Assembly (NCBI GenBank): GCA_963836755.1
Contig: CAWIKF010000001.1
Coordinates: forward strand, 224,001-288,000
Direction of reading: 5' to 3'
Source of the DNA: an uncultured Verrucomicrobiae bacterium
Lineage (GTDB): Bacteria; Verrucomicrobiota; Verrucomicrobiia; Chthoniobacterales; Chthoniobacteraceae
DNA: 64,000 nt
The translations under genes were made by a program, and so were the position numbers. Below the pieces are notes generated by a model. The model had not been told where the DNA came from. It did not search any database and worked only from the letters and a program-made list of their open reading frames with translations. Below are positions 1 to 55,112 of the stretch, in pieces; position 1 is the stretch's first letter; every line of letters begins with the position of its first letter.

Positions 1-1341
1 TTGGTGGGCGGAGCGAACTTCTCGGTAGGCAGCGGCGGCGGCGGCAATACGGAAACCATCTCGGGGGGTATCACCGGCACCGGTAACTTCATCTCCGGAA
101 GTCCGGCCGGCAACAGCAGAACGTCCAAAGTGACGCTATCGGGCGCTGCCATTAACATGACTGGCTACCTCGCCAATAACACGGCCGCGACCCTCGCCAA
201 TGGCGGGTTTGGCTATGGATCAGACAGCGCTGCGGGCAGCAATACCACAGTGAGTGCGCAGATCGGCGCCAACGTGACCGCGTTGTATCAAAACTCGGCC
301 ACCAATACGTTCATCCTCACCGGAGCGAGCAATCCGTTCTTCGGGGACACCATCGTTTCCGCAGGCACTTTGAACCTTCGTAACTCGACCACCTTGCAGA
401 ACAGCGTGGTGAACTTCACCGGCGGTGCGGCGACCTTCGGCACGAGCACCACCGTGGGCCTTTCGTCCGTCACGCTCGGCGGCCTCGCAGGCTCCGGCAA
501 CGTGAACCTAAACAACACGGTCACCGCTACGCCGGGAGCCGTGGCCTTGACCATCGGCAACAGCAATGCCAGCAACGGCAGCACTGCCAATCCGAACACG
601 TTGAATCCGGTTTATTCCGGCATTCTCTCCGATGGCACCGCCACCGGAGCCAGTGTGACAAAGACCGGCACGAACACGCAGGAATTCTCCGGCGCGAACA
701 CCTACACCGGCGGCACGACGATCAACCAAGGCAAGCTGCGAGTGACTAACACCACCGGCTCAGCCACCGGCACAGGCGACGTGGGCGTGACCGGGAGCGC
801 CACGACCTTGAGCGGGACCGGTTTTGTCACCGGCAATGTCAATGTCAGCGCCAGCGGGCGGCTCGCACCCGGCACCAATACCACCGGCGCCAACAGCAAC
901 TTCGGAGCGCCAAACCTTTTGACCCTCGCCTCGGGCAGCGGGACGACTCTTTCGCTCAATGGCGCCAACGCGGACTTCGATCTAAGCAGCACGGCGGGTG
1001 GGTCCAATGACAAGATTGCCACCAATGCGCTGAGCCTCACCGGCACGAATACCTTCACCTTCAACGAGCTCAATGGCACACTCGACACCACGAACACCTA
1101 CACCTTGGTAAATGGCAGCAACCCCGTGACCGGCTTCAACCCCGCGAGCTTCACCACCAATTTCATCAATACCAACGGCAGCGCGACCCTCTACACCCCG
1201 ACCTATTCGACGGACGGTAACAACCTGCTGGTCAGCTTTGCCGTCGTCCCCGAAGCCAGCACATGGGCGATGATGCTCGGCGGGTTTGGCACACTCATCG
1301 TTTTCCAGCGGATGCGCAGTCGCAAATTGGTGCGGGCGTAA
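1..1341 (+). CDS. PEP-CTERM-type surface protein with autotransporter-associated beta-strand repeats (5' truncated by window edge)
   Basis: G/T/S/N-rich; TKTGTNTQEFSGANTYTGGTTINQGKL repeat; C-terminal VPEASTWAMMLGGFGTLIVFQRMRSRK (PE motif, TM helix, basic tail). Confidence 0.9.
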   Translation: MVGGANFSVGSGGGGNTETISGGITGTGNFISGSPAGNSRTSKVTLSGAAINMTGYLANNTAATLANGGFGYGSDSAAGSNTTVSAQIGANVTALYQNSATNTFILTGASNPFFGDTIVSAGTLNLRNSTTLQNSVVNFTGGAATFGTSTTVGLSSVTLGGLAGSGNVNLNNTVTATPGAVALTIGNSNASNGSTANPNTLNPVYSGILSDGTATGASVTKTGTNTQEFSGANTYTGGTTINQGKLRVTNTTGSATGTGDVGVTGSATTLSGTGFVTGNVNVSASGRLAPGTNTTGANSNFGAPNLLTLASGSGTTLSLNGANADFDLSSTAGGSNDKIATNALSLTGTNTFTFNELNGTLDTTNTYTLVNGSNPVTGFNPASFTTNFINTNGSATLYTPTYSTDGNNLLVSFAVVPEASTWAMMLGGFGTLIVFQRMRSRKLVRA

Positions 1342-1361
1342 ACGATTCCAAGCGAAACTCT

Positions 1362-1402
1362 AAAGCCGCCGCGTCATTTGCTTGGCGCAGCGGCTTTTTT
1401 TT
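1362..1402 (+). terminator. Rho-independent terminator
   Basis: AAAGCCGCCGCGTCA-loop-TGGCGCAGCGGC followed by a T-run, 20 nt after the stop codon. Confidence 0.8.
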
Positions 1403-1649
1403 CTGTGAGCAAAGGAGCCCTTTTCAAGCAGATGGGCGCGAGGAGGCACTTTGCGGACTTACCGCTCTTAACTCTCGCAAACTATCACATCCTAAGACCT
1501 GAAATAGCACACGAAAAAACATGCGATGGCCATCTTTGCCACTATTTTCCATACAGCCGAATGGCCGCCTTTGTCCGCCACAAACCTGTTTTCACTTCTC
1601 CTCAGACACAAAACAAAATCCCGTGAAAAAAACAAGTTCAGTTCGCCCC

Positions 1650-3479
1650 ATGAAAACCACCCGTCGCCGCACCTCCTTCATCCTTGCCGGTTCCATCAGC
1701 GCGTTGCTCTCCGTCCACTCCGCGCAGGCGATCATGGTAAGCAACACCGAGGATGATGTGCTCAATGGCAGCACCGATCTCACTGACCCCGCCTCCTACA
1801 ACAATGGGGCTCCCGGCACCACAAGCGACGTCACTTTTACGGCGCAGTCATACAGCCCCGCAACCTTTACCGTTCCTACAAACCTGAGCATCGGCACGCT
1901 GGATGATCTGGCCACCAACGCGCTGACCATCACTGGCGGCGGGAACTCCACCACCTTGACGCTCAATGGCGGCGCAAACTCCGTCGCCGGTGCCGATCCC
2001 GCCGATTTGATTTACGTTAAAACCTCCAACTTCACGATTGGCGCTGCTTCACCCACCATGGGTCTGGCCTTGGCCGCCTCCGGAAATTTCGACATCGCGG
2101 CTGGCACAACCACGATCAATTCGGTGATCTCCGACAGCGGCGGCGGATTCACCAAAACCGGCGCGGGCAAGCTAGTGCTTGCCAACAGCGGGAATACCTA
2201 CACAGGGCCGACCGCGATCACCGGCGGCGCGCTGAGCATCGCAGCTGAGGCCAACCTCGGGGCGGCCCCGGCATCATACGTGGCAAATCAACTGACGCTG
2301 GATGGGGGAACGCTTCAGCTTTCAGGAAACACGAGCACACAGAACTGGTCGGCGAATCGAGGCATCTATATCGGTGCGGGAGGTGGTGCCATTACTACTC
2401 CCGGCAACGATGTCCAGCATGTAAACTTCCAGGAAATCATTTCCGGCCCCGGCACGTTGACCTTGAGCCCGCGCGGAACCGGCACACGAGCGTTTATTTT
2501 GTCCGGTGCCAACACCTTCGGCGGGCTGATTATTGCGCAGAACGAGGTGGATGCAGCGAATAGCTCGGCCCTCGGTGCCGGATCGGTGCAGCTCGGCACG
2601 ACCAACAGTAATAACAATACTACGATTTATATTACTGCCAACGGTGCGAATATCACCAACAACATCACCGTCACGCCGGGTGGGACTCGCACCTTGGGAA
2701 TTAACTCAAGCGGCGGAACCAGCACATTCTCCGGCCCGATTTCTCTCACGGGAGGCACGGTCAATCCGACCCTTAATCTTGCTCAGCTGAACAACAACAG
2801 CACCCTCAACTTGACCGGCGGCATCACCGGCACGGGTAATGTCGCCTTTGCCGGCGGCATAGGCACGAGAAACAACGCAAATATAACGATCAGCGGTGCC
2901 GACGTGAACAACGTGGGCACCATCAGCAACCTCGACAGCGTCAGCTCGGGCACGAACACGATCAGCGCGAACATTGGCTCAAACGTCACAGGCATCATAC
3001 AAAATACCACCCACTCACCACTGGTCGTTTCAGGGGCGAACACTGCCTTCGCTGGCACAACCACGGTTACCCTTGGCACTCTTTCGACCAGTTCCGCGGG
3101 CACTCTCGGAAGTGGGAACGTGGCGGTCGCGGACACCGCTGGGGCGATCCTGACCTTGCAGAACACGGCTTCGATTGGCAGTTCGGCCATCCTCAGCTTC
3201 GGCACGAATTCAGCGATCAACATGAACTTTACCGGCGACGACACACTCGCCGGAATCACCGACACGACCACCTCGCAAATGCTCGCGCCCGGCACTTACA
3301 CGGCAGATCAACTCAATACCTTCTTCGGTGTCAGCTCCTTCGCGACCACCAATGGCGACCCAACGACCGCCACGTTCAGCGTCGTTCCCGAGGCGAACAC
3401 GTGGGCGCTGATGCTTGGCGGGTTTGGCACGCTGGTAGTTTTCCAGCGGATACGCCGCCGGAGCTCGCAGCGGGTGTAG
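1650..3479 (+). CDS. PEP-CTERM-type surface protein with autotransporter-associated beta-strand repeats
   Basis: Likely start ATG 1650 gives signal peptide MKTTRRRTSFILAGSISALLSVHSAQA; TKTGAGKLVLANSGNTYTGPT repeat; C-terminal VPEANTWALMLGGFGTLVVFQRIRRR. Confidence 0.9.
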   Translation: MKTTRRRTSFILAGSISALLSVHSAQAIMVSNTEDDVLNGSTDLTDPASYNNGAPGTTSDVTFTAQSYSPATFTVPTNLSIGTLDDLATNALTITGGGNSTTLTLNGGANSVAGADPADLIYVKTSNFTIGAASPTMGLALAASGNFDIAAGTTTINSVISDSGGGFTKTGAGKLVLANSGNTYTGPTAITGGALSIAAEANLGAAPASYVANQLTLDGGTLQLSGNTSTQNWSANRGIYIGAGGGAITTPGNDVQHVNFQEIISGPGTLTLSPRGTGTRAFILSGANTFGGLIIAQNEVDAANSSALGAGSVQLGTTNSNNNTTIYITANGANITNNITVTPGGTRTLGINSSGGTSTFSGPISLTGGTVNPTLNLAQLNNNSTLNLTGGITGTGNVAFAGGIGTRNNANITISGADVNNVGTISNLDSVSSGTNTISANIGSNVTGIIQNTTHSPLVVSGANTAFAGTTTVTLGTLSTSSAGTLGSGNVAVADTAGAILTLQNTASIGSSAILSFGTNSAINMNFTGDDTLAGITDTTTSQMLAPGTYTADQLNTFFGVSSFATTNGDPTTATFSVVPEANTWALMLGGFGTLVVFQRIRRRSSQRV

Positions 3480-3666
3480 CGCAGCGCGGGAAAAACTCCC
3501 GCAACTGCGTCACACCATATCGCGCCGATCGTCTTTTCATGCGCGGGAAATCAAATTCACCGCGCCACCGCATTTCTGCCAAGCCTCGCGCGCGACGATG
3601 CGCCTTCCAACGCGCCCGCCGCCGGCGGCCCGCCCGCGTGAGCTAAGCGAAAGACACGATCAAAAC

Positions 3667-3699
3667 AAAAAGCGCCGCAGGAGACTGCGGCGCTTTTTT
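3667..3699. terminator. Bidirectional Rho-independent terminator
   Basis: AAAAAGCGCCGCAG-GAGA-CTGCGGCGCTTTTT perfect stem with A-run and T-run, between convergent genes. Confidence 0.85.
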
Positions 3700-3790
3700 A
3701 GTTCTTAGTAAGATGTCAGAAGTGCCCGCTCTGCATTTCGAGCACTGCTCACGCATCCGCGCGCACCAATTCCTAAATCCTAAAATCTCC

Positions 3791-4495
3791 TCACCCTCTC
3801 ACCAGCACCGTCTGAATCGCACTCTCCACCCCCACGGCCGAATCCTTCAGATACGCCTGCCCCTGGATCTCCCACTCCTCCGGTTGGCCCGGCGTCGCGA
3901 TCGGGATGTGTAGCATCGCCGGCGTCGCCATGAAGCGGCCGAGATCACTCCACGTGCTCGTGCCCGCTTTGCGTCCTTGGAAATTCATCGCTGTGATCTG
4001 GCCATTCGCCTTGCGGAACTTCGCGCTGACCGTCGCCGTCGCCGTGCAAGTCACGCCAGTGATCACCGCCACGTAGCTGGTGGGATTAAAACTGCCGGCC
4101 GTCGCTTCCGTCCGCAGCGTATTTCCCTGCACGGCGGGATTGTAGCTCGTCGAGCTTTTCACTGCCTGCACCCATTTTTCGCGACGCGCCTCGATTCCCG
4201 CCAGCACTGCTGCGGGCGCAACCGGCATCGCGGGCACCGGTGGAACGACGGGTGCGGGTTGGTCAATCGCCCCGTCCAGGTAGGAGTGGATGTAGCCTGT
4301 GATGGAGGTCACGAAGCCTTCGTAGACATTCGGCAGCGTCCGGTAGAGATAGACCGCCATGGCCGCATCGGCGAGAATGGAGGTGAGTTGTGTGGCGGAA
4401 ACGCCGCAGGCCGTGAGCGTCGGTCCCTGGGTGGCGATGTTGGCCCACCAATCGGCGCGGCCTTCGTTGTTTGGGGAATAGTAACCTTGTGACAT
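3791..4495 (-). CDS. Hypothetical protein, predicted helical N-terminal part, Pro-rich linker and Ig/Fn3-like beta C-terminal domain
   Basis: 234-aa ORF from ATG 4495 (MSQGYYSPNNEGRADWW...), normal codon style, PAPVVPPVPAMPVAP linker, C-terminal WEIQGQAYLKDSAVGVESAIQTVLV beta pattern; fold is inferred. Confidence 0.75.
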   Translation of the reverse strand: MSQGYYSPNNEGRADWWANIATQGPTLTACGVSATQLTSILADAAMAVYLYRTLPNVYEGFVTSITGYIHSYLDGAIDQPAPVVPPVPAMPVAPAAVLAGIEARREKWVQAVKSSTSYNPAVQGNTLRTEATAGSFNPTSYVAVITGVTCTATATVSAKFRKANGQITAMNFQGRKAGTSTWSDLGRFMATPAMLHIPIATPGQPEEWEIQGQAYLKDSAVGVESAIQTVLVRG

Positions 4496-4579
4496 AGTTT
4501 TTTGTTCTTTCGTTTCTGTTGGGTTTTGCCACCCCGTCATGGGGCGGCTTTGGGCGGATTCTTACCTCCGCCGCCGCGA

Positions 4580-4610
4580 TGTCGAAACCTTTAGTGTTAA
4601 GATTTCGACA
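4580..4610. promoter_or_regulatory. Imperfect palindrome, possible operator
   Basis: TGTCGAAACCTT-N7-AAGATTTCGACA, 11/12 complementary arms, 85 bp upstream of the 4495 start. Confidence 0.4.
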
Positions 4611-4705
4611 CATTGGATTCGAACGGCTACAAAATCGTTCCAGCCGCCCACCGCATCCCGTGCCATCGCCGCTGGCAGCGAAACAGCCGGCGCACGGCAT
4701 CGATC

Positions 4706-4961
4706 GGTGACCACCAGACGGCGAATGGTCGCCACCCGACCGGAGATAGTGGCCACCTTTCTGGAATGGTGGGCACCGGACAGGAAATGGTGGCCACCAT
4801 CGCGGAATGGTGGGCACCTGCGAGCATTTGGTGGCCACTTTTTGCAAATGGTGGCCACCTGAGAGGTTTTGGTGGTCACCATTTTGGAAAGGTGACCACC
4901 GGGGACGAATTGGTGGCCACCTTTTAGAAATGGTGGCCACTATTTGGAAAAGGTGAGCACT
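4706..4961. repeat. Tandem array 1: 13 copies of palindromic core GGTGGCCACC with 10/11-nt spacers
   Basis: Cores start at 4706, 4727, 4748, 4768, 4789, 4809, 4830, 4850, 4871, 4891, 4912, 4932, 4952. Confidence 0.95.
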
Positions 4962-5353
4962 TTTCTCGAGCAATTCCAGCCTTTTACTCTGTTGAGCAGC
5001 ACGGGAGGAGGTTTCTCGGCCCCTTGGACCAGCCGATCTGAGTGCCAGGCGAGAAGAGGGGAGCGCACGCAAGCATCCGTTTACGCCGCGCATCGTCATG
5101 GCGACGATTGTCACACGTCCGTGCGCACTCGCCTGTGCTCGCCGAGCAGTCCCATCCCAAATTGCTGAGAATGCATATAAAAAGTCACAAAATAGAATTG
5201 GACGCCATTCGCAGCCGGATTATTTTCCCCGCGCTCGATCCCCTTTGTGCTGCTTTTCCCCGAACCTTTATCCCACACGAACCCGCGTAAACAGAGGCAT
5301 CGCGGTCATTTTTCAAGTGCCGGAGCCACATTTCCCGCGGCTCCGAAAAATTC

Positions 5354-5405
5354 TCACAAGAAAGTGAAAAAATTATTTGACGCCCGCTTTCCGCTCCGGT
5401 ATCTT
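5354..5405 (+). promoter_or_regulatory. Sigma70-type promoter with upstream TCAC-N6-GTGA inverted repeat
   Basis: TTGACG (5377-5382), 17-bp spacer, TATCTT (5400-5405); TCACaagaaaGTGA 5354-5367; same arrangement upstream of the paralog. Confidence 0.7.
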
Positions 5406-5449
5406 CCATCCCAGCAGCTCCCATTCTCATTAAAAACCTCCCGTTTCAA

Positions 5450-8400
5450 ATGAACCAATCTTCGATCTCGAATTCCGTCTCCATCAACCTCTCAGCCTCC
5501 AAAAGCAGAATGAAATACAAGCAATCCTTCGCCCTCAAGCTCCGCAACCGCGTCGCAGCGGTCATCGCCACCACCGCCGCGATCACGATGTCCAGCCACT
5601 CGGCTCACGCGCAGAATACGGTGGACAATTACACCGGCACCACGACCGGAAACGTCACTACGCCTGGCAACTGGAGCTTGAACGCGGTCCCTGTCATTAC
5701 CAATGATGCCGTTTTCCCAGTCGGCGCCGCCACCGGCGTTAGGAATTTCAGCGTAGGCAACGGCGCCTCTGTGGGACCGAGCTTGGTGGTTGGTTCGCTG
5801 GACGATTTATCCACAGGAACCACGGTCACGATCCAGAACGTTACGACCTCTGCCTCCGCTGTCACCATTACCTTGGGCGGTGCGGGTAATCTTGGAAATT
5901 CTGTCAGCGGAACCGCCGCCGATTTGTTTTACGTTGCGACGGGCGGAACTTTCAACATTACGGGCACTGGCGGCACTGGTGCCACCCTCGGCCTCGTTCT
6001 CGGCCAATCGGGTAATTTTGATGTCGCCGGCACCTCGACCATCACTTCGATCATCAGCGATGGCGGAAACGCCTTTGCGATCACCAAAACGGGCGCTGGC
6101 ACCCTGACGCTCTCGGGTGTCAATACCTTCTCCGGCGGATTCACCGTCGGCGCGGGCACTGTGACTTTCGGCGGCAATGCTGCCAATCTGGGGGCCGGCG
6201 CGATCGGTCTCGGCATAGCCTCCGGCTCTACGAACGCGATCCTGCAGTATAATACGGGGGGGGTCAACACGTTCACTAATGCGGTCAATGTCAACGCAAC
6301 TTCCGGTGGGACGCTGGAAATCTTGAACAGTTCCGGTTCTGTAAACTTCTCGGGGCCGGTGACGCTAGCCAACAACCTGCTGTTGGTGAATACCAACGGC
6401 ACCACCACAAATACCCTGACGCTCAGCGGGAATATCACTGGCACGGGTAATATCACCGCCAGCGCTACGACTGGAGCGCCCATCATTCTTACTGGAACGA
6501 ACTCTTACATCGGCACCACGACCCTGACGGCGAACAACTTGTATGCGGAGAATACAGGAGCGACAAATGTCGATAAGGCACTCAGCACGGGCACAGTGAT
6601 TTTGAATGGCGGCAGTCTCTTTCTGAAAGCCGACGGCAGCGGCAATGCTCAAACGATCATCACGGGCGACGGGACGACGGGCAACAACGTCACGGTGGGC
6701 GGAAACACGACCATTGACGTCAATAAGCTGGTAGCGGCCAACACCGGAAATACTTTTGTGCTCAACAACCTGAGCATTGGCGCAAACACACTCAACGTCA
6801 CAGGCGGGAGCAGCTACGCGCTGAAGTTCGCGGGCACGACGACCTTGACGGGCAACGCCACATTCAGCCCCAGCACGGCGAACCTCACTTTGACCGGCGT
6901 TATCGGCGACGGCGGCAGCGGATTCACGCTCACGAAAACCGGAGCAGGCACACTGTCGCTAGCCGGCGCGAATACCTACAGCGGCTTGACCACGGTTTCC
7001 GCCGGAACGCTCTCGCTGGCGGGTGGCACCATTGCCAACAGCAACGTCAGCCTCGGTTCAGCCACCTTCCAGGTTCTGAATGATGGTGCAGGCAGCAATG
7101 GGACGATCAGTCTCGGCAATAACGTCACTGTTAATGGAGCGACTACGACGGATACCATCAATGTCGGCAACAACGGCAGCGGGAACACTGGCAATACTGT
7201 GGCGTTCGGCGCGTTGAGCAACGGAACACCCGCTCAAGGTAACGCGGTCACGATCAATTTTACCGGCGCCAATGGCTACTTGGAAAGCTTCAGCAGTCTG
7301 GCACTGACCGGCGGTGGGGGTCAAGGAACCACCTTAAATCCGACGAGCACCTCGGTCACCATCCTGGGCAATGTCACCAATCAGATTACCACCAATCCGC
7401 CGACGGGAAAATTTGACACTCTGGTCCTCAGCGGCACCAGCTCGGGCAATGCGATCAATGGTGTCATCGCCGACAACGCCAACTACACCTCGGTCGGCAA
7501 CGGAGACACTCGAGTCACCATGACCGGCACCGGCTCGTGGACGCTCGGCGGCGCGAACACCTACCACGGTCCCACGACCGTCAACAACGGCACTCTCAAG
7601 TTGGGTCTCACCAATGCCATTCCGACGGCCAGTGCGCTCACGGTTTCGGGCTCGGGTGCGGGAGTGACCGCCATTCTCGATTTGGCGGGCTTCGATGAGA
7701 CCAACAGCAGCCTGAGCTTGGGCGGCAGCACCGCTACCAGCGGCGCGACTGTCACGAACTCCACTGGCAGCAGCACGCTCAAACTCACGGCCGGTGCGAC
7801 TTATTCGGCCACCAACAATCCGCTGGGTGCCACGATTTCCACCACCACCCTCGACCTGAACGGCGCGGCGCAGACCTTTACCGTTGGCGACAGCACCACG
7901 GCGCCATTTGATCTCTCCATTTCCTCCGTCATTCAGAACGGCTCTCTCATCAAAGCAGGCTCCGGCGTCCTCGCTCTGAGCGGCGCGAATACCTATGCTG
8001 GGGGAACGTCGGTTACTGCCGGCACTCTCGACTTTCAAAAGACGGCGGCGAAGCCGGTGGCCGGAACCACCACCGTCTCCAGCGGCGCCACTCTGGGACT
8101 CGGGGTGGGAGGAGCGGGATTTTTTGGTGCGGCGGATGTGAATGCCTATCTGACGAATACACTTTCCGGCGTGAGCGCATCTCGGAATCTCGCGATCGAT
8201 ACGACAGCCGGTGACTTTAGCCTGGGAGGCCTCGCCCTCCCGAATGGTTTGCGCTCTATCGCCAAGCTGGGCGCCAATACCTTGAATCTGGGCGGGATTA
8301 CTCGCACTCTGGGGATTTTGAATTTGCCGAACGCGACCGGTGCGGTCACGACCACGAACAGCAATGACGCAAGCGGCATCCTCGGGCCTTGGGCGACCAT

Positions 8401-11400
8401 CGGCACCGGTGCATCGATCAGCTACGCGGTGGCCAACGGCGGCAGCACCCCCATCAGTGCGTTGCCTGTCGCCTCGCAGACGGGTCTAGGGAACGCAGGA
8501 GGAGGCACGGTGGACATCACGAACTTCATCGATAACACCGGCAGCAAAACATTCACGGCGAATGTGGCGGCCAATACTATCGAGAATAGCTTTGCCGGCG
8601 TGACGCTGGCCAACGGCGGCTTCAGCGTGACCACGAACGGCATCCTCGACCTGACCGGCACAACGTTCAGCGGGGCCGGACATATGAAGGCCGGTGCGAC
8701 CAAGGAACTCGACATCATCAACACGAACGTGACCACGACGATCAGCTCGGTCATCGAGGATTCGGCGTCTGGCCCATCGTCGTTGGTTTTTGCCGGCGTC
8801 GGCGGGGGCACCCTGGTTCTTGGTGGAACTACTAATACCTACACTGGCAAGACCTTGATCACCAACGGCACCATTTCCATCTCCGTTGAGGCTGCTCTCG
8901 GTGCTACGCCGGTTTCAGCCGTGGCTGACGAGATTACTCTCGATAACGGCACTCTCCTCGTGACGGGTTCGGGCAATCAAGTTATACTGACCGCAAACCG
9001 GGGGATCACCCTCGGAACCTACGGTGGAACTTTGAATCCTGGCTCCAACAATGCCAGCCTCACGGTGAATGGCGTCATCACCGGCTCTGGCTCGCTGACT
9101 ATTAATGGGAGTAACGCCAGCGGTCGCTTTTTTACTCTTGGTGGTGCGAATACTTACACTGGCGACACCAGTATTCAAAACTCTACCGTGCTGAATGTGA
9201 ATACTGCGACAGCCTTCGGCGTTGGCGGCACGGTGTCCGTTGGCTCCTCCGGAAGTAACCTCACTCCTAATATCAAGATCGGTAACTTCACTGTCGCAAA
9301 CGCGATTTCGGTGACCGCGGGTGGAGGGCGCAATTTCCTCGCCGTTGGAGCAACGAGCGGTCTGAGCGGTGCGATCGCATTGGTCGGTGGAGCGACGAAT
9401 CCCACCTTGAATCTGGGCATTAGCGGCAACAATGAGACGTTTAACATCACCGGCGGAGTGACCGGCACGGGGAACATTTCCCTGGGTTCTGGATCGTCTG
9501 CCGTGACTGGCGCGCAAATCAATCTCAGCGGGGGCGCGATCAACAATATCGGCACGATCACCAATGTGGGGGTCGTTACTTCGGGCACATACACCATCAG
9601 CGCCAATATCGGCTCGAATGTCACGGGCGTGATCCAGAACAGCAGTGCGGTTCCTCTGGTATTGAGCGGAGTGAACACCTACACCGGCGCGACCGCCATC
9701 AATAGCGGCAAACTCCGCTTGACCGGTTCGCTGACGAGCGCGGTAACGGTGGGCAATGACTCAGCCACCACGGCCATCTTCTCTGGCACGGGCACGACAA
9801 CGGGCTTGGTGACCACTTTCACCAATGGAGCGAACGTTGCCTACCTCGCCCCTGGCGTGAATGTCAGCGGCACCCGCACCGACTTCGGTGCAGCCGGCAC
9901 GCTGCACCTGAACAATGGGTTGACTATCGGCAACGGGACGCAGCTTGATTACGACTTGGGCACCTCGCAGGATTTGATCGCCGGCAGCGGCGCTCTTAGC
10001 CTTGGCACCGGAGTCACTGTCAACGTTGCCGATCTTGGTGGCCTGGCGACAGGCACCGCTTACACCCTGATCAGTGGCTTCGGCTCCCACAGCGGTGACG
10101 TGAGCACATGGACGGCGGCTGGCACGGCACCCGCCGGCACGACGGGCTACACCTTTGCTCTTAGCGGCAACGACGTGACGCTGAAATTCATCGGGGCGGC
10201 GGCGACTGCGACCAGCTACTCGCTCGCAGCGGTGGCGGCGAACAACAATGTGCTCGTCAACCACGCCACAGGAGTCACCAGCACGATCACCAACACCGGC
10301 ACCGGCACGGCGGATACGCTCGACTACACCGGCTTGAGCGCAAGCGCGACCGGCGGCACGATCACCGGGGCGGCGACCAATGGCGGCCCGCTGGCGCTAG
10401 GCGCGAGCGGCAGCAACTCCGGGTTGACCTACAACGCGGGAGCCACCAGCGGCACCTACGCAATTGCGGTCACCCCGACCGTGGGCACCGCCACCAATGA
10501 CACCATCGGCGGCAGCGCTTCCAACAGCGGCACGACGACACAGGCGGTGACGGTGTATGACGCCGCCTCGCTCAGTGGCAGCGGGCTCAACGTGGCCAAC
10601 GCCGCGGGAACTTTCCGCGCCTCGGCCGCGGTGACTTCCGAGAGCTTCAATGGCCAGGCTGGCTTCACGGCCGCCGGCGGCCTTGTTGGCACGCAGATCG
10701 ACGCAGGCACCTCCACGGCAGCGGCGACCTTCGACAGCACCGGCAAACTCAACGGCACCTATAACACCACCGCCACCATCGGCTTCAACGATGTGACCAG
10801 CGGCAGCGCAGCCATCGCAGGCGGCACGGGTGACAGCGCTACGGGCATCGCCCTTTCGGCGACGGTCACCGGCAAGACCAACAACGGCAGCGCCACGGTG
10901 CTCGCGGGACAAAGCTACGCGGGCTACGGATTGACCAGCTCCGGCTTTGCCCAGAGCCCGACCACGGCCACGCTCCTCGACGGTCACGCCGGCGTGGGCA
11001 ACACAGGCCCTCTCTCCGATGGGCTGGATCACACCGTCGTCATGGCCTTCTCGAACGGGGTCGGCGGCGAACCGAACGACGCGAGCAAGCTGAGCGATGT
11101 GCTGACCTTGACCGGCACCAACACCGACAAGTTCGTGCTGCAACTCACCTACACCGGCACACCGGCCCAAGGCACTCCGTTCCTCGCCTACTACAGCGCG
11201 GCCTACGGCGGCTATGTCAACGCGATTGCAGGCAACAGCAGCGGGAACATGACCCCGTTCGGCGGAGCCGCATACGGAGAAATCGCAGGCGCCTATGATC
11301 CGAACAACGACTTCGTGCTCGGCGACTACGGGTTTGATGCCGCCAACCACACCGCGTGGGCAGTGCTCGATCACAATAGCGACTACGAAGTCATCCCCGA

Positions 11401-11491
11401 GTCCAGCACTTGGGCATCACTCGCAGCCGGCTTCAGCACGCTCATCGTGTGGCAGCGCGGACGCCGCCGGAAGTCAGTGCGCCTGAGCTAA
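5450..11491 (+). CDS. Large (2013 aa) PEP-CTERM-type surface protein with many autotransporter-associated beta-strand repeats
   Basis: Signal peptide after MKYKQSFALKLRNRVAAVIA; repeated TKTGAGTLTLSG-NT[YF].G.T motifs; C-terminal WAVLDHNSDYEVIPESSTWASLAAGFSTLIVWQRGRRRK. Confidence 0.92.
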   Translation: MNQSSISNSVSINLSASKSRMKYKQSFALKLRNRVAAVIATTAAITMSSHSAHAQNTVDNYTGTTTGNVTTPGNWSLNAVPVITNDAVFPVGAATGVRNFSVGNGASVGPSLVVGSLDDLSTGTTVTIQNVTTSASAVTITLGGAGNLGNSVSGTAADLFYVATGGTFNITGTGGTGATLGLVLGQSGNFDVAGTSTITSIISDGGNAFAITKTGAGTLTLSGVNTFSGGFTVGAGTVTFGGNAANLGAGAIGLGIASGSTNAILQYNTGGVNTFTNAVNVNATSGGTLEILNSSGSVNFSGPVTLANNLLLVNTNGTTTNTLTLSGNITGTGNITASATTGAPIILTGTNSYIGTTTLTANNLYAENTGATNVDKALSTGTVILNGGSLFLKADGSGNAQTIITGDGTTGNNVTVGGNTTIDVNKLVAANTGNTFVLNNLSIGANTLNVTGGSSYALKFAGTTTLTGNATFSPSTANLTLTGVIGDGGSGFTLTKTGAGTLSLAGANTYSGLTTVSAGTLSLAGGTIANSNVSLGSATFQVLNDGAGSNGTISLGNNVTVNGATTTDTINVGNNGSGNTGNTVAFGALSNGTPAQGNAVTINFTGANGYLESFSSLALTGGGGQGTTLNPTSTSVTILGNVTNQITTNPPTGKFDTLVLSGTSSGNAINGVIADNANYTSVGNGDTRVTMTGTGSWTLGGANTYHGPTTVNNGTLKLGLTNAIPTASALTVSGSGAGVTAILDLAGFDETNSSLSLGGSTATSGATVTNSTGSSTLKLTAGATYSATNNPLGATISTTTLDLNGAAQTFTVGDSTTAPFDLSISSVIQNGSLIKAGSGVLALSGANTYAGGTSVTAGTLDFQKTAAKPVAGTTTVSSGATLGLGVGGAGFFGAADVNAYLTNTLSGVSASRNLAIDTTAGDFSLGGLALPNGLRSIAKLGANTLNLGGITRTLGILNLPNATGAVTTTNSNDASGILGPWATIGTGASISYAVANGGSTPISALPVASQTGLGNAGGGTVDITNFIDNTGSKTFTANVAANTIENSFAGVTLANGGFSVTTNGILDLTGTTFSGAGHMKAGATKELDIINTNVTTTISSVIEDSASGPSSLVFAGVGGGTLVLGGTTNTYTGKTLITNGTISISVEAALGATPVSAVADEITLDNGTLLVTGSGNQVILTANRGITLGTYGGTLNPGSNNASLTVNGVITGSGSLTINGSNASGRFFTLGGANTYTGDTSIQNSTVLNVNTATAFGVGGTVSVGSSGSNLTPNIKIGNFTVANAISVTAGGGRNFLAVGATSGLSGAIALVGGATNPTLNLGISGNNETFNITGGVTGTGNISLGSGSSAVTGAQINLSGGAINNIGTITNVGVVTSGTYTISANIGSNVTGVIQNSSAVPLVLSGVNTYTGATAINSGKLRLTGSLTSAVTVGNDSATTAIFSGTGTTTGLVTTFTNGANVAYLAPGVNVSGTRTDFGAAGTLHLNNGLTIGNGTQLDYDLGTSQDLIAGSGALSLGTGVTVNVADLGGLATGTAYTLISGFGSHSGDVSTWTAAGTAPAGTTGYTFALSGNDVTLKFIGAAATATSYSLAAVAANNNVLVNHATGVTSTITNTGTGTADTLDYTGLSASATGGTITGAATNGGPLALGASGSNSGLTYNAGATSGTYAIAVTPTVGTATNDTIGGSASNSGTTTQAVTVYDAASLSGSGLNVANAAGTFRASAAVTSESFNGQAGFTAAGGLVGTQIDAGTSTAAATFDSTGKLNGTYNTTATIGFNDVTSGSAAIAGGTGDSATGIALSATVTGKTNNGSATVLAGQSYAGYGLTSSGFAQSPTTATLLDGHAGVGNTGPLSDGLDHTVVMAFSNGVGGEPNDASKLSDVLTLTGTNTDKFVLQLTYTGTPAQGTPFLAYYSAAYGGYVNAIAGNSSGNMTPFGGAAYGEIAGAYDPNNDFVLGDYGFDAANHTAWAVLDHNSDYEVIPESSTWASLAAGFSTLIVWQRGRRRKSVRLS

Positions 11492-11556
11492 GGCGACAGT
11501 CGCAACCATTACTCCAAAAAGCGCCGCAGTTCGAAAGACTGCGGCTCTTTTTTTTT
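9674..11556 (+). repeat. Long direct repeat copy 1 (3' ~600 codons plus terminator), paralogous to 16186-18064
   Basis: Near-identical protein and DNA from NTYTGAT..GKLRLTGSLTSAVTVGNDSATTAIFSG through the stop codon and terminator. Confidence 0.9.
11516..11556 (+). terminator. Rho-independent terminator
   Basis: AAAAAGCGCCGCAGT-TCGAAAG-ACTGCGGCTC followed by T9. Confidence 0.85.
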
Positions 11557-11844
11557 GCGCTGAGTAAGAACGGCCTGCTCGCCGCTCTGAGCGCTGGCGA
11601 TTTTTACCGACTCTCTTTCCCACACGGTCCTTCCAATCGAGTAGCGCTGTTTTGTCCGGAAGATAACGGAAATGTCACAAAAAGGACGCTGACACAACGC
11701 CACAAAATCTCGTTTTCTTAGCGCTCGATCGCCGCGCGCCGCTTTTCTCGCCGACTTTTTATCTCCCGCGGAGCCTGTCTGGACAGAGTAATTGCGTCGA
11801 TTCCAGCCAAATCACCCATCGTTTCCGGTGTCGCCAAAAAAATG

Positions 11845-11896
11845 TCACAAAAAAGTGAAAAAATTATTTGACACCCATTTTTCCCTCCGCTATCTT
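11845..11896 (+). promoter_or_regulatory. Sigma70-type promoter with upstream TCAC-N6-GTGA inverted repeat
   Basis: TTGACA (11868-11873), 17-bp spacer, TATCTT (11891-11896); TCACaaaaaaGTGA 11845-11858. Confidence 0.75.
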
Positions 11897-11940
11897 CCAT
11901 CCCAGCAGCCCCCATTTTAATTAAAAACCTCCCGTTTCAA

Positions 11941-14900
11941 ATGAACCAATCTTCCATCTCCAATTCAGTTTCCGCCAACCTCCTCATCAAAACCTCCAAA
12001 AACAAAATGAAATACAAGCAATCCTTCGCCCTCAAGCTCCGCAACCGCGTCGCAGCGGTCATCGCTACCACCGCCGCATTCTCGATGTCTGCGCAGGCGG
12101 CAGATACCACCACTTCTTCGTGGCTCGGCGGAACGACCAACTGGTCAACCTCCGCGGGGAACTGGAGCGCCGGCGTGCCTTCTGCAACGATCAGCGCGAA
12201 GTTTGACGGGACTTTCACGAACCAGCCGACCCTCACCGCGGCTTCTACGGCACAGGGAATCTGGTTGGCCACTGGCGATGCCCAGGATGTGACGATCAAT
12301 GCGGCTTCTGCCTTCACGCTCAGCTTGACCGGCACGGCCACCTTAAATAGTCAGACCAATGCCGGTATCATCATGACCGATACGGCGAATCACAACCTCA
12401 CGATCGGGCCGAACGTGAGCATCACGCTGTCCAACCCTACTGGTTTTTATAACAATGAAGCGACGGGTCTCCTGACGGTCTCTGGCGGTTTAAACACGAA
12501 TGCGAAAGCCCTGGCCATTGCTGGCACGGGTGCCACGACCCTCTCCGGTGTTGTTAGCGGCAGCGGTGCAATTACCATCAGTAACGGCGGCACGGTGACG
12601 ATTTCGAACATCACTGACTCCTATAGCGGCCAGCTCACCGTTCAGAACGGCAAGTTGAAGATCGATACGATCAATAACACGAGCGCGAATGGTGAATTGG
12701 GTAACAATGCGCTTGCTGTCATCCTGGGCAATACGGGCGGCCAGACCGGCACGCTGGACTACACCGGCGTCACGGCAGCGAGCAGTAAGAAATTCACGAT
12801 GGCCACCGGCGGCACCGGCGCTTTCCAGATCGATACAGCGGCGGCTGTCCTCACACTCAGCGGCGTGATTGACGGCGGCGGCGCGCTCACCAAGACAGGT
12901 GGCGACACCGCGAGCGTGCTCCTTCTCTCGGGTGGAAACTCCTACAGTGGTGGTTTGAATGTCGTCACCGGCACGGTGAAGCTCGGCAATACCACCGGCT
13001 CGGGTGCCGCGACAAACATCGTCTCCGTCGGCACGGGTGCGACTTTCGATATCGCGACTTTCTCGCCAACCATCGGCGGTTTGACCGGATTGGGAACGGT
13101 GACCAATAGCAGCACAGCGGGCACGCTGACCATCAACTCCACGACCACCAACACCTTTGGCGGCGTGATCACGGCAGTCACCCCTGCCAACCTCTTGCTG
13201 ACCAAAAGCGGTTCGGGAACTCAAATCCTGACCGGCGCGAACACCTACACTGGCGCGACCACCATCAATGCGGGCATTCTGCAATTGAGCGGCGCAACCG
13301 GTGCCTTGGCGCTTTCCGCCACGGCCCCGGCGTTGAACGGCGGCTCTTTGATCCTGGATAACACCGGTGCTGCCAGCAACAACAACAACCGTATCGCCGA
13401 TACACAGGCACTCGCGCTCAACGGCGGCAACTTCGTTTACAAAGGTTCCGATCAAGGGGCCACCAACTCCACGGAGACCATCCAAAACCTCAGCGGCACT
13501 GGCAATTCCACCATCACGGTCTCCTTCGGCGGCACGAACGGGGCTACTCTCACGGCGGGAACCTTTACGCACGCAGCGGGCAATGCCACCGATATGGTCA
13601 ACGGTGTAAACCTTGGCAAAAACTCGACGGATGCCGCGAGCTTCGCCCGTTTCATCAGCACTGCGCCGACTCTGACCGGCACGACGAACGCCCTCACGAC
13701 GGGCATCAATTCCGCTGTCAAGAACACGAAAATCGTTCCGTTCCTGGTGGGCGAAGCGACTTCGACCACTGGCGGCTTGGGAACGGCCACCGGCACGGCG
13801 AATACTTTTGTCACCTACATTGCCGGCAGTGGCTATCGCCCGTTGAACCCGACCGACGAGTTCACCAACAACGCCATCACGGCAGGCACTAACACTTACG
13901 TCACCACGGGGGCTACCAACACCGCCAATACCTCGATCAATTCCCTCGTCATCAATGGCGGTGACGTGACGGTCAACGACGGCTTCACCCTCACGAACAC
14001 CAGCGGCGCCTTGCTCTTTGCTTCGTCGAACAGCATCAAACCCAGCGGCACGACCGGCCTCTACACGGGTTCTGCGGAAAACCAGATCACGGTGAATTCC
14101 GCTGTGACCGGCACCATCAGCGCGATTGTGAGCGGCTCGCAAGCCCTCACCAAGAGCGGCGCGGGCACGCTGGTGCTCAGCGGGGCGAACACCTATAACG
14201 GCGCCACGACCCTCGCCGCGGGCACGCTGAACCTTAGCAATGCGCTGGCTCTGCAAAACAGCACCTTGACGTATAGCACCGCCGGCACATCGCTGGTATT
14301 CGATGCAGCGGGCGGCACCGCCTTTACCCTTGGTGGCCTGACCACGGGCAACAACATTCTTTTAGCTAATAATGGTTCAGCTGCAATCAACTTGACCGTG
14401 GGCGGCAACAACAGCTCGACGACCATTGGTGGTGTCCTCTCGGGCACGGGCGGCTCGCTGACGAAGACTGGCACTGGCACGCTGACTCTGGGTGCAGCGA
14501 ATACCTACACCGGCGCGACGGTCGTCAATGGGGGCAAACTCTACCTGCAAAATGGTGCGACGCTCAAGTTCAGCTCCTCTGTCACTGCGACCGGAACCGG
14601 CTTGCTCGCGATGAACAACGGCAGTGAAAGCGGCCAGTTTGCGGCGGGAGTGGTAATCCAGGGCACTGGTGGCTTTAGCAACGAGATCAACAACCCGAAT
14701 ACCAACGTAACTTTAGACCGGGACAATACTTATACCGGGCAGACGACATGGGGATCTCGAGGTGTCACCGCAGCGGGCGTGGTCTCAAAATACGACGTCA
14801 GCGGCAACCAGATCAGCGGTGCCTTTGGCGTCAATTCAAAGATTAATTTTGCCGCCCAGCCGTCTACGTTGCTTTTAAGCGGCAATAACAACCAGGTTGG

Positions 14901-17900
14901 GTCGCTGTCCGGGACGCCCGGCGGCGGAGGTGGCGTGCTGCTGCGTGGTGCAACCATCACGATCGGCGGAGACAACACAGACGCCACCTACACCGGGCCT
15001 ATTACCAATAACTATTTACCGGGCACCGATCAAAACGGCAACGGCAGCACTGGCCAAGTTGCAGGCGGTAATGTCATCAAGATCGGCACCGGCACGCAGA
15101 CCATCGTTTCAACCAACAACCCCAGCGGCTATGAGGGGACAACGACCATCAAGGGCGGTGTGCTGAGCATCAATGTGCTGGGAACCAACGGGGATACTGC
15201 TAACAACCCAAATGGAACGAGCGGCTATGTGACCGCGACGACTACGATCGTCAACACCACGACACTTACGGTTGCGAGCGGCACGACGGGTTTGGTTAAA
15301 GGTATGAGTGTATTCGATCTCCAGTCGCTTGGTAACGGAGCGAAAATCACCAATCTCGTGGACAACGGCACGACTATCACGATTACCTTATCCGCCGGTC
15401 TTAATGCGGGCGTTACTGGAACCAAAACCAATGTAAACTATGGTTTTGGCAGCGGCATCGGCCTTGCCGGTCCCGCCGCATCCACCCTCGTCCTTGACGG
15501 CGGCACGCTGCGATACACGGGTGTGGCGACCACCACCGACCGTCTCTTCACCGTCGGCTCCACGGTCGCTGGCGCGACGGGAACACTCGATGCCTCTACC
15601 GGGGGGGCTATCACCTTCGGCAACACTGGCGCAATCGCCTACGGGACGATCGATCAAACCCGCACGCTCGGCCTCACTGGCAGCACTGCCGGGAACATCT
15701 TCAATCCCCTGATTGGCGACAATGGCGCGGGTGCAGTTAGCGTGCTCAAATCGGGCACGGGTTCCTGGACGCTCACGAACACGGGCAACGCCTACACTGG
15801 TGGAACCACCGTCAACGCCGGCATCCTGACTTCCGCAGTGACTGGTGGCTTCGGCGCAGGCAATGTGACCGTGAATCCGACCGGAAACACTTTGGCGGAT
15901 GCGACGACGTTAAACTCGACCGGCAGCATCGCCTCGACGGCGCTGGTCACGGTTAACAACAACGTTGCCGCCATCGGCACGGTGAACTTTAACGGCGCGG
16001 CGCCGACCATCGGCGGCTTGACCGGCAGCGGCAACGCGGTCCTCAACAACGCGACCGGAACTGCATTGACCGTGGGCAGCACGAACAACCTCGACTCGAG
16101 CTTCACAGGCGCCATCAGTGAAGGCACCGTCGGAATGGGCAGCCTCATCAAGGCGGGCACTGGCACACTGGCCTTGGGCGGCACGAATACCTACACCGGC
16201 GCGACCACGGTCGCGAACGGCAAACTCCGCTTGACCGGCTCGCTGACGAGCGCGGTAACGGTGGGAAATGATAGCGCGACCACCGCCATCTTCTCCGGCA
16301 CGGGCGCGACGAGCGGCTTGGTGACAACGTTCACCAATAACTCGAACATCGCCTACCTCGCGCCTGGCGTGAATTCCACCGGCACCCGCAGCGACTTCGG
16401 TGGGGCTGGCACGCTGCACCTGAACAATGGGTTGACCATTGGCAACGGGACTCAGCTTGATTACGACTTAGGCACCTCGCAGGATTTGATCGCCGGCAGC
16501 GGCGCTCTCTCGCTCGGCACGGGTGTCACGGTGAACGTCGCCGACCTGGGTGGCCTGACGACCGGCACGACCTACACGCTGATCAGCGGCTTTTCCGGCG
16601 TAACCGGCAGTCCGACAGGATGGACGGCGGCTGGCGCGACGCCTTCTGGCTCGACCGGCTACACCTTTGCCCTCAGCGGCAACGATGTGACACTGACCTT
16701 CAACGCTCCTGTGAGTGCGACGGCGACGACCTACTCGCTGGCAGCAGTGGCAGCGAACAACAATGTGCTCGTCAACCACACCACAGCAGTCACCAGCACG
16801 ATCACCAACACCGGCACCGGCACGGCGGATACGCTCGACTACACCGGCTTGAGCGCAAGCGCGACGGGCGGGACCATCACCGGGTCTGCGACCAACGGCG
16901 GCCCGCTGGCGCAAGGCGCGAACGGCAACAACCCCGGGTTGACCTACAACGCGGGAGCCACCAGCGGCGCCTACGCAATCACCCCGACCGTGACTACCGC
17001 AACCAACGACACGGTAGGCGGCAGCGCGAGCAGCAGCGGCACGACACCTCAAGCGGTGAACGTGTATGATGCAGCCTCGCTCAGCGGCAGCGGACTCAAC
17101 GTAGCCAACGCAGCGGGATCTCCGCTCCGCGCCTCGGCCGCAGTGACTTCTGAGACCTTGAGCGGCCAATCCGGCTTCACCGCCGCGCTGGTCCCCGGCA
17201 CCACGAAGATCGACGCGGGCACTTCCACGGCAGCGGCGACCTTCGACAACACCGGCAAGCTCAACGGCACTTATCACACAACCGCCACTGTCGGCTTTGA
17301 TAATGTGACCAGCGGCAACGCTGCCATCGCAGGCGGCGCAGGCGACAGCGCCACCGGCATCGCCCTGAGCGCCAGCGTCTCCGGCAAGACCAACACCGGC
17401 AGCGCCACGGTGCTCGCGGGACAAAGCTACGCGGGCTACGGCTTGGGCAGCACGTTTACCGACAGCACCACCGCCACGCTCCTCCAAGGCAACGCCGGCG
17501 TAGGCAACACAGGCCCTCTCTCCGATGGGCAGGATCATACCGTCAACATGGCCTTCTCCAACGGGGTCGGCGGCGAACCGAATGATGCCAGCAAGCTGAG
17601 CGACGTGCTCACCTTGACCGGCACCAACACCGACAAGTTTGTCCTGCAACTCACCTACACTGGCACACCGGCCCAAGGCACACCGTTTATCGCCTACTAC
17701 AGCGCGGCCTACGGCGGCTATGTCAACGCGATTGCCGGCAACAGCAGCGGAAACATGACCCCCTTCGGCGGACCCGCCTACGGAGAATTGACGGGTGCGT
17801 ATGATCCGAACAGCGAGTTTGTCCTCGGTGACTACGGGTTTGATTCCAACACCAACACCGCATGGGCAGTGCTCGATCACAATAGCGACTACGAAGTCAT

Positions 17901-49559: not shown

Positions 49560-49579
49560 GGCGCCATCGGCGCTCTCTT

Positions 49580-49675
49580 TTAGCCACGGATGGAAACGGA
49601 TGAAACACAGATACGGATTGGCACGCAGCCGTCCTTGGTTTCTCCACATCCGTGCTCCATCCGTGCCGATCCGGC
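49580..49675. repeat. CACGGAT/ATCCGTG-type short inverted repeat element
   Basis: GCCACGGATGGAAACGGATG... pairs with CATCCGTGCTCCATCCGTG; a further right arm occurs at 50137-50161. Confidence 0.75.
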
Positions 49676-49678
49676 ACT

Positions 49679-49952
49679 GAAAACTCGGCGTCCCGGCGTG
49701 AATTCCTCACGTCCCGTCGAGAAAAGTCCACGTCCGATGGAGAAAAGTTGAGGTCCCGAGGAGAATTTCTCACGTCCCGGGGAGAAAACTTCACGTCCCG
49801 CGGAGAATTTCTCACGTCCCGTTGAGAAAACATCACGTCCCGGGGAGAATTTCCCACGTCCGATGCAGAAGTTTTCACATCCCGAGGAGAAGTTCTGACG
49901 TCCGGTGTAGAAGTTTTTTACATCCCGAAGCCATTTCCTCACGTCCCGCCGC
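49679..49952. repeat. Tandem array 2: 13 units of 21 bp, consensus GAA-WWNYY-CACGTCCCG-NNGA
   Basis: Units start at 49679, 49700, 49721, 49742, 49763, 49784, 49805, 49826, 49847, 49868, 49889, 49910 (22 nt), 49932. Confidence 0.95.
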
Positions 49953-49991
49953 CGAAAACGGATAATTTAAGACAAATCTCTCGCAAATGAC

Positions 49992-50097
49992 CGGGAGCGC
50001 ACGCTTCCAGCGTGCAGTCGCCGGCATCCTGCCGGCGACATCCGCGAAGGATTCGGCAAGGATGCCGAACCCGGCACGCTGGAAGCGCGCGCTCCCG
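49992..50097. repeat. REP/MITE-like palindromic element (106 bp)
   Basis: CGGGAGCGCACGCTTCCAGCGTGC ... GCACGCTGGAAGCGCGCGCTCCCG terminal arms (23/24 complementary); internal CGGCATCCTGCCG / CGGCAAGGATGCCG hairpins. Confidence 0.85.
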
Positions 50098-50248
50098 ATA
50101 AGAGCCGTCCGTCTCATCCCAAAAAACCCCGTTTCCCATCCGTGTCCCATCCGTGGCTGAACCAAATGGAACCCGCATGAATCTCCTTCCCAATGCACCC
50201 AAAAACATCACTCTCCCCAAATGCCTGAAAACACACCCGCCACGTTGA

Positions 50249-50680
50249 CGATCCGCAACGCGCAACATCCTCGAAGCCGCTCTCAACAATGAGGCGACCT
50301 ATGTGGAAGGCCTCGTCGAAGACCTCACCGATGCCGCCGCAGCCGCCATTATCGAGGAAGCGGGCATGTCCGTGGCGGGAGAAGTTCCGCCCATCGGCCC
50401 GATGCCGAAAGTCGATGGCCTTTCCGCCACGCAAGGCGACAGCGAAGGCGAAGTCGATCTCCATTGGAACCCCGTGAAACGCGGCTTGCAAAACTACCTC
50501 ACCGAGGTCACCGACGACCCGACCGGCCAGACCGGCTGGCGCTTTGCCGCCAACAGCCGCAAAAGCAGCGTCGCAGTCACCGGCCTCACGAGTGGGAAAA
50601 GGTATTGGTTCCGCGTCACGGCCGAATGCGCCTCCGGCTCCGGCCCCGCCAGCGAGCCGCAAACCAAAGTCGCGCCGTAA
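50249..50680 (+). pseudogene. Fibronectin type III domain protein, apparently 5'-truncated
   Basis: Open frame from in-frame TGA 50246-50248: ..RNILEAALNNEATYVEG..IIEEAGM..LSATQGDSEGEVDLHW..VTGLTSGKRYWFRVTAECASGSGPASEP; no ATG before the helical remnant. Confidence 0.75.
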
Positions 50681-54882: not shown

Positions 54883-55112
54883 TCGGGGATCTACTTTGCA
54901 AGGATGCGGAGAGAGGTTGGGCGAAGTCGCGTTGGGAACGTGAAAAATCGTGGCGACTTTGCTCCCAATCGCGACGACTGCGTTTAAAGTCGCAATGACT
55001 TTGCTCAAAGAAATGACGACTTTGTTCCAAGAAATGAAGACTTTGTCAGAAATCGGAATGGCTTTGTTCCAATCGTCGAGACTTTGTCCTGAATCGCGCT
55101 GATTCTCTCTTT
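54883..55112. repeat. Tandem array 3: degenerate 21-bp units with core GACTTTG
   Basis: Clear units at 54946, 54967, 54988, 55009, 55030, 55051 (20 nt), 55071; in-register degenerate units at 54883, 54904, 54925, 55092. Confidence 0.85.

Follow-up and report, generated by a model that had tools for sequence, protein, structure and literature searches.

What kind of element is the row of short palindromic cores designated array 1, and does it act alone or together with the gene beside it? The array lies in the window, by which we mean the whole 64,000-nt stretch of DNA analyzed here, taken from a genome of the Chthoniobacteraceae (G000, 3.18 Mb, 96% complete). The original prediction described a repeat unit of about 41 bp and offered two readings, a guide array reminiscent of miniature CRISPR or dual-repeat systems, and a row of dimer-binding sites. 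We re-parsed the array, compared it with a related strain and with other periodic arrays of the same genome, modeled the product of the neighboring gene (hereafter, the partner) and examined the neighborhoods of partner relatives in other genomes. The features of the window and a conserved block found in two other genomes are collected in Table 1.

Table 1. Features of the window and conserved block loci in genomes G001 and G002 (C1 and C2 are contigs of the source genome)
Feature	Position or loci	Strand	Description
Partner gene	3791..4495	-	234 aa; helical N-domain (1-135) and C-terminal fibronectin type III (FN3) fold
Partner leader	4496..4607	-	Conserved with the 74%-identical paralogue; inverted repeat at ~4580-4610
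Array 1	4706..4961	.	13 palindromic cores GGTG-NN-CACY on a 20/21-bp grid; local 41-bp higher-order repeat
Conserved tail	4962..5029	+	Common to the sister arrays; homology with the solo array at C2:713.5 kb stops approximately here
Terminal box TTTACTCTG	4983..4991	+	Faces away from array 1; holds a -10-like TACTCT (putative promoter)
Second array	49684..49928	.	21/42-bp grid, other core; with flanks 89% identical to the array at C1:615.8 kb
Broken partner gene of the second array	50221..50680	+	Start matches the intact gene at C1:616.4 kb
Third array	54934..55109	.	Weak member of the class, without partner
Second conserved block	L116, L123, L126, L129 (G002); L117, L121, L127, L130 (G001)		

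The re-parse recovered the 13 cores, the core-to-core distances (21,21,20,21,20,21,20,21,20,21,20,20) and all 12 spacers exactly as first described. Twelve cores (4706-4941) match GGTGGCCACC with at most one mismatch, and the 13th (4952-4961) is more degenerate, with three mismatches; the spacer lengths are 11,11,10,11,10,11,10,11,10,11,10,10. The GGTGGCCACC core has 15 matches in the window against 1.51 expected, a number that none of 100 shuffles reached. As had been noted, the 10-nt spacers are more alike than the 11-nt spacers (mean pairwise identity 0.61 versus 0.50) and more self-complementary, forming 2-4 of 5 possible self-pairs, compared with 0-1 in five of the six 11-nt spacers and three in the remaining one. 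Both classes exceed the null identity of 0.26 obtained from random genome pieces (p ~1e-4 for each). Array 1 matches itself better at lag 41 (0.60) than at lags 20 and 21 (0.46), permutation of the spacer order gives p=0.03, and with the lengths alone a runs test yields p=0.067. The alternation is real yet modest. Reading frames drift across the array and no peptide recurs, which bears out the earlier statement that it is not a coding repeat.

A 255-base contig of a related strain, from another public run, spans positions 4632-4886 and covers nine of the 13 cores, the four distal units falling outside it. It differs from the window by nine substitutions and no gaps. Among the seven changes listed inside array 1, five are in spacers and two at core positions 1 and 6, with none at core positions 2-4 or 7-9. 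Over these nine cores the regularity is thus no assembly artefact, in agreement with the first reading of the locus, and the proposed strain comparison for spacer gain or loss revealed neither over nine units, only substitutions.

Three sister arrays with the core of array 1 were identified in the source genome (C1:29.6 kb, C1:630.2 kb and C2:713.5 kb), and in this core family of four members the gene is found only at array 1. The suggested genome search for isolated core dyads gave 118 sites with at most one mismatch genome-wide, of which 49 are inside the four same-core arrays. Two of the sister arrays consist of 21-bp units followed by 20-bp units and the third mixes them, so none of the three alternates; the basic unit is therefore 20/21 bp, and the 41-bp period, originally called the true unit, holds for array 1 only, as a local higher-order repeat. 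Sister-array spacers are 0.78-1.0 identical within a class. The 11-nt spacers of array 1 agree with the sister consensus at 47% of positions (24% by chance), and its 10-nt spacers agree with those of the third sister at 73% (23% by chance). Since the 11-nt spacers are related both to one another and to the sister spacers, they derive from one ancestral repeat and were not acquired. Judging from these likenesses, both spacer types are likely old variants of one repeat that were amplified as a pair, which would have produced the 20/21 alternation as a minor local by-product.

The 53 cores of the four same-core arrays reveal how the core itself is constrained. Positions 2, 3, 8 and 9 are invariant relative to the consensus, position 4 deviates twice and position 7 once, while 20 deviations fall at the centre (positions 5-6) and 22 at the last base. 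The core is composed of two half-sites with a loose centre, a pattern that fits the predicted row of dimer-binding sites. Outside the source genome, a triple GGTG-NN-CACY pattern was not found in 150 other genomes of the family, and 133 metagenome and viral loci with the pattern yielded one weak hit to the partner-family profile, the longest arrays among them being unrelated repeats. A partial REP-like copy is located near 5058-5075, after the tail of array 1.

Array 1 belongs to a much larger class. We found 67 periodic regions in the source genome, of which four ordinary coding repeats were dropped before counting, leaving 63 arrays, a few of them weak. The steps within the 63 arrays are 21 (352 cases), 42 (52), 41 (31), 20 (30), 22 (4) and 19 (1), and frame-breaking 20- or 41-base steps in 18 of the arrays rule out a coding repeat for the class. 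Cores differ widely among the arrays. Dyad density exceeds the 95th percentile of the background in only 14 of them, array 1 being among the dyad-richest. Eighteen arrays precede an intact gene for a helical or helical-FN3 protein of 200-350 aa, five a broken one (truncated or frameshifted), and for 40 (solo arrays) none was detected with 21 seed proteins; this count is partly circular because the seeds were chosen from array neighbors. The solo arrays are placed between convergent (8), divergent (9) or tandem (18) genes or were scored inside a gene (5, one of them in an apparently spurious frame), and many begin just past stop codons. The idea that solo arrays are younger and more uniform than gene-linked ones found no support, the two groups showing no difference in homogeneity (p=0.54).

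The window contains two further arrays of the class (Table 1). The second shares 662 bp with another locus, and its broken partner gene, after the matching start, runs into an FN3-bearing remnant in another frame. Two palindromic repeat types, one of them REP-like, flank this array (49577-49680 and 49990-50160) and are co-duplicated at C1:615.8 kb.

The partner gene starts 210 bases from array 1, and its leader has a weak sigma-70-like match. No family was assigned to the protein in Pfam, NCBIfam or PADLOC; it has relatives in 628 cluster representatives (E<=0.001), and the ESM Atlas returned only unnamed Verrucomicrobiota clusters, the nearest named cluster being fn3 at 0.85. In the structural model (pLDDT 86) the C-domain matches FN3 chains (Z 11.0, rmsd 2.5, 89 aligned residues). 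Modeled alone, the N-domain reaches pLDDT 96 and has no clear match among 48,161 solved chains (best Z 5.1, rmsd 4.5, 87 aligned), which is not proof of a new fold; no known nuclease or recombinase was matched (best Z 5.1), and a comparison with viral models gave nothing clear (best E 2.4). Residues P7, W16, D43, G100, R104, Y118, G124, G222 and S225 are near-invariant in 107 sequences.

Two copies of the partner gave a dimer score of 0.82, compared with 0.01 for the best of three controls; at least 70% of contacts agree between runs at a pLDDT of at least 86, and the predicted contacts involve the long helix at 46-74 as well as the segment extending to residue 104. Of 30 proteins solved as pairs, 20 attained the mark for a dimer, as did 1 of 23 solved as single chains; these counts hold only roughly since our own alignment was used. 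Modeling thus supports the prediction that the partner forms a two-fold homodimer.

More than 20 partner genes or remnants are present in the 3.2-Mb genome, including one full-length partner-like gene without an array. The array of the 74%-identical paralogue has a different core, and the paralogues that are 74% and 54% identical to the partner have no repeated 8-mer in common with array 1. On this sequence comparison, array likeness does not appear to track protein likeness, which is hard for a model of strictly cognate sites. The partner-family database proteins P0010, P0011, P0013 and P0016 have N-terminal extensions, one with a clear heptad repeat; the extensions are probably the upstream array read through by gene callers. 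Four genes for PEP-CTERM/PATR surface proteins with near-identical starts form a run at 1-17997 of the window. The module sits between two genes of this run, and the 74% paralogue likewise faces such a gene.

The association of array and partner recurs beyond the source genome. An array with 21/42 lags lies upstream of the partner relative in six of seven loci, with differing cores. In related genomes the same was found upstream in 19 of 23 partner-relative loci, compared with 2 of 23 in a downstream control; the 23 loci come from 30 fetched, after five of G000 and two duplicates were left out. As some loci may belong to both sets, the counts are kept separate. Partner relatives are patchily distributed, being present in 12 of 61 genomes.

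The arrays also have an end signal in common. Allowing up to one mismatch, TTTACTCTG has 25 hits at the ends of the 63 arrays against ~3 expected, of which 21 point outward, and arrays whose core is a different one also have it at their ends; the majority of the 63 arrays are without a terminal box. Exact hits number 11 in G001 and 13 in G002, compared with 3 and 1 for the reversed control, and 5 of 8 fetched hits in G001 and 6 of 8 in G002 adjoin arrays. At two G001 loci the box is found 30-42 bp ahead of the start codon of the partner, and at some G000 loci it stands in the interval from array to gene; with respect to the gene, three proximal and three distal boxes face outward, and two distal ones inward. 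Because this place varies, the box could be either a portable promoter or the end of an element. At a distance of ~10 bases from the box there is a second conserved block, which has an A/T-rich centre and occurs in both orientations (loci in Table 1); it opens the insert in the alanyl-tRNA synthetase (AlaRS) gene of G002 and may mark an element end. At G000:C2:2209386-2209455, beside array 63, two terminal boxes stand back to back around ~53 bases and resemble a minimal element without an array.

Among the arrays there are 14 families with several members. Eight of these include an intact partner (exactly one in seven cases), one only a broken partner, and five none. One copy matches a gene-linked array at 96% identity over 496 bp, and it ends after the first 35 codons of the gene. 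Inside genes we found four arrays, all in frame; from their sequence and conserved orthologues we take these genes to encode AlaRS, class II ribonucleotide reductase, IspG and an RND transporter. At one and the same loop of AlaRS, G000 and G002 have arrays with different cores (lag-21 match 0.78 in the latter), G054 has a degenerate 21-lag insert (0.61) and G001 an unrelated insert; in G003 and G004 the loop is a short linker. In the reductase the segment measures 124 aa, versus 51 aa in all three usable orthologues (five genomes were searched; one yielded a fragment and another a distant relative). In IspG it measures 134 aa, versus 37-70 aa in the four orthologues located among five. Both the AlaRS and the IspG insert have relatives among the intergenic arrays (76% over 207 bp; 85% over 110 bp), so they did not arise by local slippage and were likely copied in; for the reductase insert no relative was found at other sites of the genome. 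As a whole module with its stop codon would not be tolerable inside a gene, bare arrays likely move, and the presence of copies in frame even inside housekeeping genes suggests that they likely move on their own.

Neither terminal inverted repeats nor target duplications are in excess at the array flanks. An inverted match of at least nine bases between the 100-bp flanks was found at one of the 63 arrays (null 6.7%), and direct repeats suggestive of target duplication at three of 63 (null 6.3%, no excess). The reductase insert is bracketed by a 7-bp repeat whose copies lie 216 bp apart; the empty alleles are too diverged to fix the junctions. Downstream of ahcY the array is absent in all five relatives, and since the next gene differs there is no clean empty site. 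The G001 AlaRS insert (L069) is ~70 aa long and presumably resembles the helix-turn-helix of sigma-factor region 4. The AlaRS gene of the source genome (L009, G000:C1:58953-62516, minus strand) contains in-frame inserts of three kinds and is nonetheless open throughout: REP-like hairpins, an array of 21-bp period and, with REP-like sequences on either side, a whole Y1 (RAYT-type) transposase domain. The G054 orthologue is enlarged too.

The reading that we prefer, and to which we give an even chance, is that array 1 is part of a dispersing module in which the array would serve as a same-face platform for the partner dimer. Its components differ in strength: the arrays probably disperse as a family, and whether the partner is the protein that binds them is evenly balanced, the dispersal being better supported than the identity of the binding protein. 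The arrays could instead be a passive minisatellite, that is, parasitic repeats spread by the REP/RAYT system of the host and kept at 21 bp by slippage and conversion, with the partner as a non-binding passenger. The genome does possess a RAYT-type Y1 transposase gene, ~3 kb from an array, as well as the second Y1 domain in frame in the array-bearing AlaRS; one REP-like motif has 7 of its 14 hits within 400 bp of four arrays (a zone of 2% of the genome); the cores do not track the protein; and the many solo arrays beginning just after stop codons are placed as REPs are (PMC3733652). Passive spread nevertheless leaves unexplained why 19 of 23 partner relatives have an upstream array of fixed period and changed sequence, and why 20-base steps are allowed while 22-base steps are almost never seen, and its REP-like link is limited to 4 of 63 arrays; we consider it unlikely. 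A fixed regulatory role, with the array as a platform for a transcription or nucleoid factor of the host that controls the partner or the divergent PEP-CTERM gene through the promoter-like TTTACTCTG box, appears quite unlikely. It would agree with the box preceding the partner start codon at two G001 loci or lying in the array-gene interval at some G000 loci, with its facing of a divergent PEP-CTERM gene both at array 1 and at the 74% paralogue, and with the half-site pattern, which suits any dimeric regulator. However, 12 of the 40 solo arrays (eight between convergent genes and four in coding sequences) can serve no flanking promoter, dozens of unrelated cores would call for dozens of factors, and the position of the box relative to the gene is not fixed.

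Two further alternatives place the function in RNA. If the array were transcribed as a leader, each core could pair with the next, and the resulting chain of hairpins could be an RNA scaffold bound by the partner dimer. The partner-sense strand does fold strongly (-130 kcal/mol, z=-9.2), neighboring cores close hairpins over the 10-nt spacers when pairing is short-range, and in some cases the box is directed into the array and toward the gene. Yet any row of palindromes folds strongly, the clustering of core changes at the centre would break core-to-core helices mid-way, and the 20/21 period is a measure of B-DNA, a fixed period being no requirement for hairpin chains; we regard the scaffold as quite unlikely too. 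Least probable by far is a guide array in the manner of CRISPR or TIGR, whose 41-nt unit would combine a hairpin repeat of 30 nt with an acquired spacer of 11 nt. The alternation on which it was built is real and the 11-nt spacers are the most varied part of the array. TIGR-Tas systems likewise combine a short-unit array, having two short spacers per unit, with one adjacent gene whose product is a two-fold dimer formed through a coiled coil (PMC12045711), as array 1 adjoins one gene with a predicted dimeric product. Against this, array 1 spacers are homologous to one another (11-nt class 0.50 versus the 0.26 null) and to near-identical spacers (0.78-1.0) of sister arrays that do not alternate, and the related strain neither gained nor lost any. 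No match to Cas1 or to the Nop domain (PF01798) was found in the 96% complete source genome, no member of the partner alignment hit a Nop family, Rfam gave no match within the window, and the partner has an FN3 fold. Array 1 further differs from TIGR arrays in having one repeat type in place of box C and box D repeats with two variable spacers, non-independent spacers, and a 20/21 grid instead of 18-nt half-units. The guide-array half of the original prediction is thus largely refuted, by spacer homology, by the absence of gain or loss, and by the lack of Cas1, Nop and Rfam matches in the scopes given.

Under the preferred reading of a dispersing module, array 1 would be a local copy of a genome-wide family of non-coding repeats with a period of two DNA turns. 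The predicted partner homodimer would cover the row of palindromic cores on a single face of the helix, reading spacing and dyad shape more than a fixed sequence. Both whole modules and bare arrays would be copied to new sites, and the bare arrays may be non-autonomous copies or the remains of modules after loss of the gene. The mobilizing enzyme may reside in the helical domain, or a REP-type HUH transposase may supply the activity in trans. A stronger version would make this a new class of mobile DNA, in which a helical-FN3 dimer reads geometry and polymerizes on the array, and its helical domain (D43, R104, Y118) performs the strand transfer that copies modules and bare arrays, even in frame into essential genes; we regard it as unlikely.

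Several known systems share single traits with these arrays. Plasmid iterons and centromere arrays (parC, sopC) consist of same-face phased sites bound cooperatively by a protein encoded next door. Unlike them, the present arrays occur in ~60 chromosomal copies whose sequence turns over while the period stays, and no Rep, ParA or ParM gene is found beside array 1, where the neighbors are the partner and PEP-CTERM/PATR genes. BrickBuilt of Porphyromonas gingivalis is a non-autonomous minisatellite-MITE with 23-nt tandem units at 19 loci, common leader and tail pieces and promoter activity reported for segments (PMC4596501). The present arrays resemble it in their short units, in dispersed non-coding copies (14 multi-member families) and in tails held in common. 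They differ from its single repeat sequence, inverted-repeat ends and invariably intergenic location (PMC4596501) by the dozens of cores arranged on a strict 20/21 grid, by ends at which no inverted repeats were found, by a dedicated downstream gene family and by some copies in frame inside genes. REP, REPIN and BIME elements, linked to RAYT transposases, and the Rickettsia palindromic elements are described in PMC3733652 as palindromic, multi-copy, often located just downstream of genes and sometimes in frame inside working genes, two locations that they share with the present arrays. The unit differs, being here a phased row of 10-bp dyads and not a 20-40-bp tagged hairpin, and the linked gene encodes a helical-FN3 protein instead of an HUH (Y1) transposase (PMC3733652).

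The pairing of arrays with the partner gene was not found described in the open literature, subscription papers being outside the scope of the search. Main-text passages of two 2026 preprints on non-coding mining make no mention of fibronectin, FN3 or DUF6261; their supplements may include arrays of this kind under 'uncharacterized repeat arrays'. We regard the array class as abundant and undescribed, with a mechanism that we infer. If the arrays spread as proposed, they would represent an abundant undescribed genome component, with 63 arrays and more than 20 partner genes or remnants in 3.2 Mb; they would extend essential enzymes by heptad loops and place promoter-like ends beside genes of the host. 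If a protein read the helical phase and left its sites free to change in sequence, this would amount to a new mode of DNA recognition, and to our knowledge an FN3 fold on DNA would be unusual in bacteria. The 74%-identical paralogues with unrelated cores make this genome suitable for a clean cross-binding comparison.

Two minor observations concern integron-like sequences. The window segment 50690-51260 contains an orphan gene (129-aa frame, no Pfam family) and a long inverted repeat with a GTTAGGC-type core end and a partial attC-like end, which we take to be integron-like remains. Arrays of 41-bp period with a long partner (346-348 aa) are located at C2:763489-766066, C2:1470100-1472200 and C1:703300-704700; all three adjoin an integrase-like gene or attI/attC-like clusters, and in two of them the array occupies the place of the integrase.
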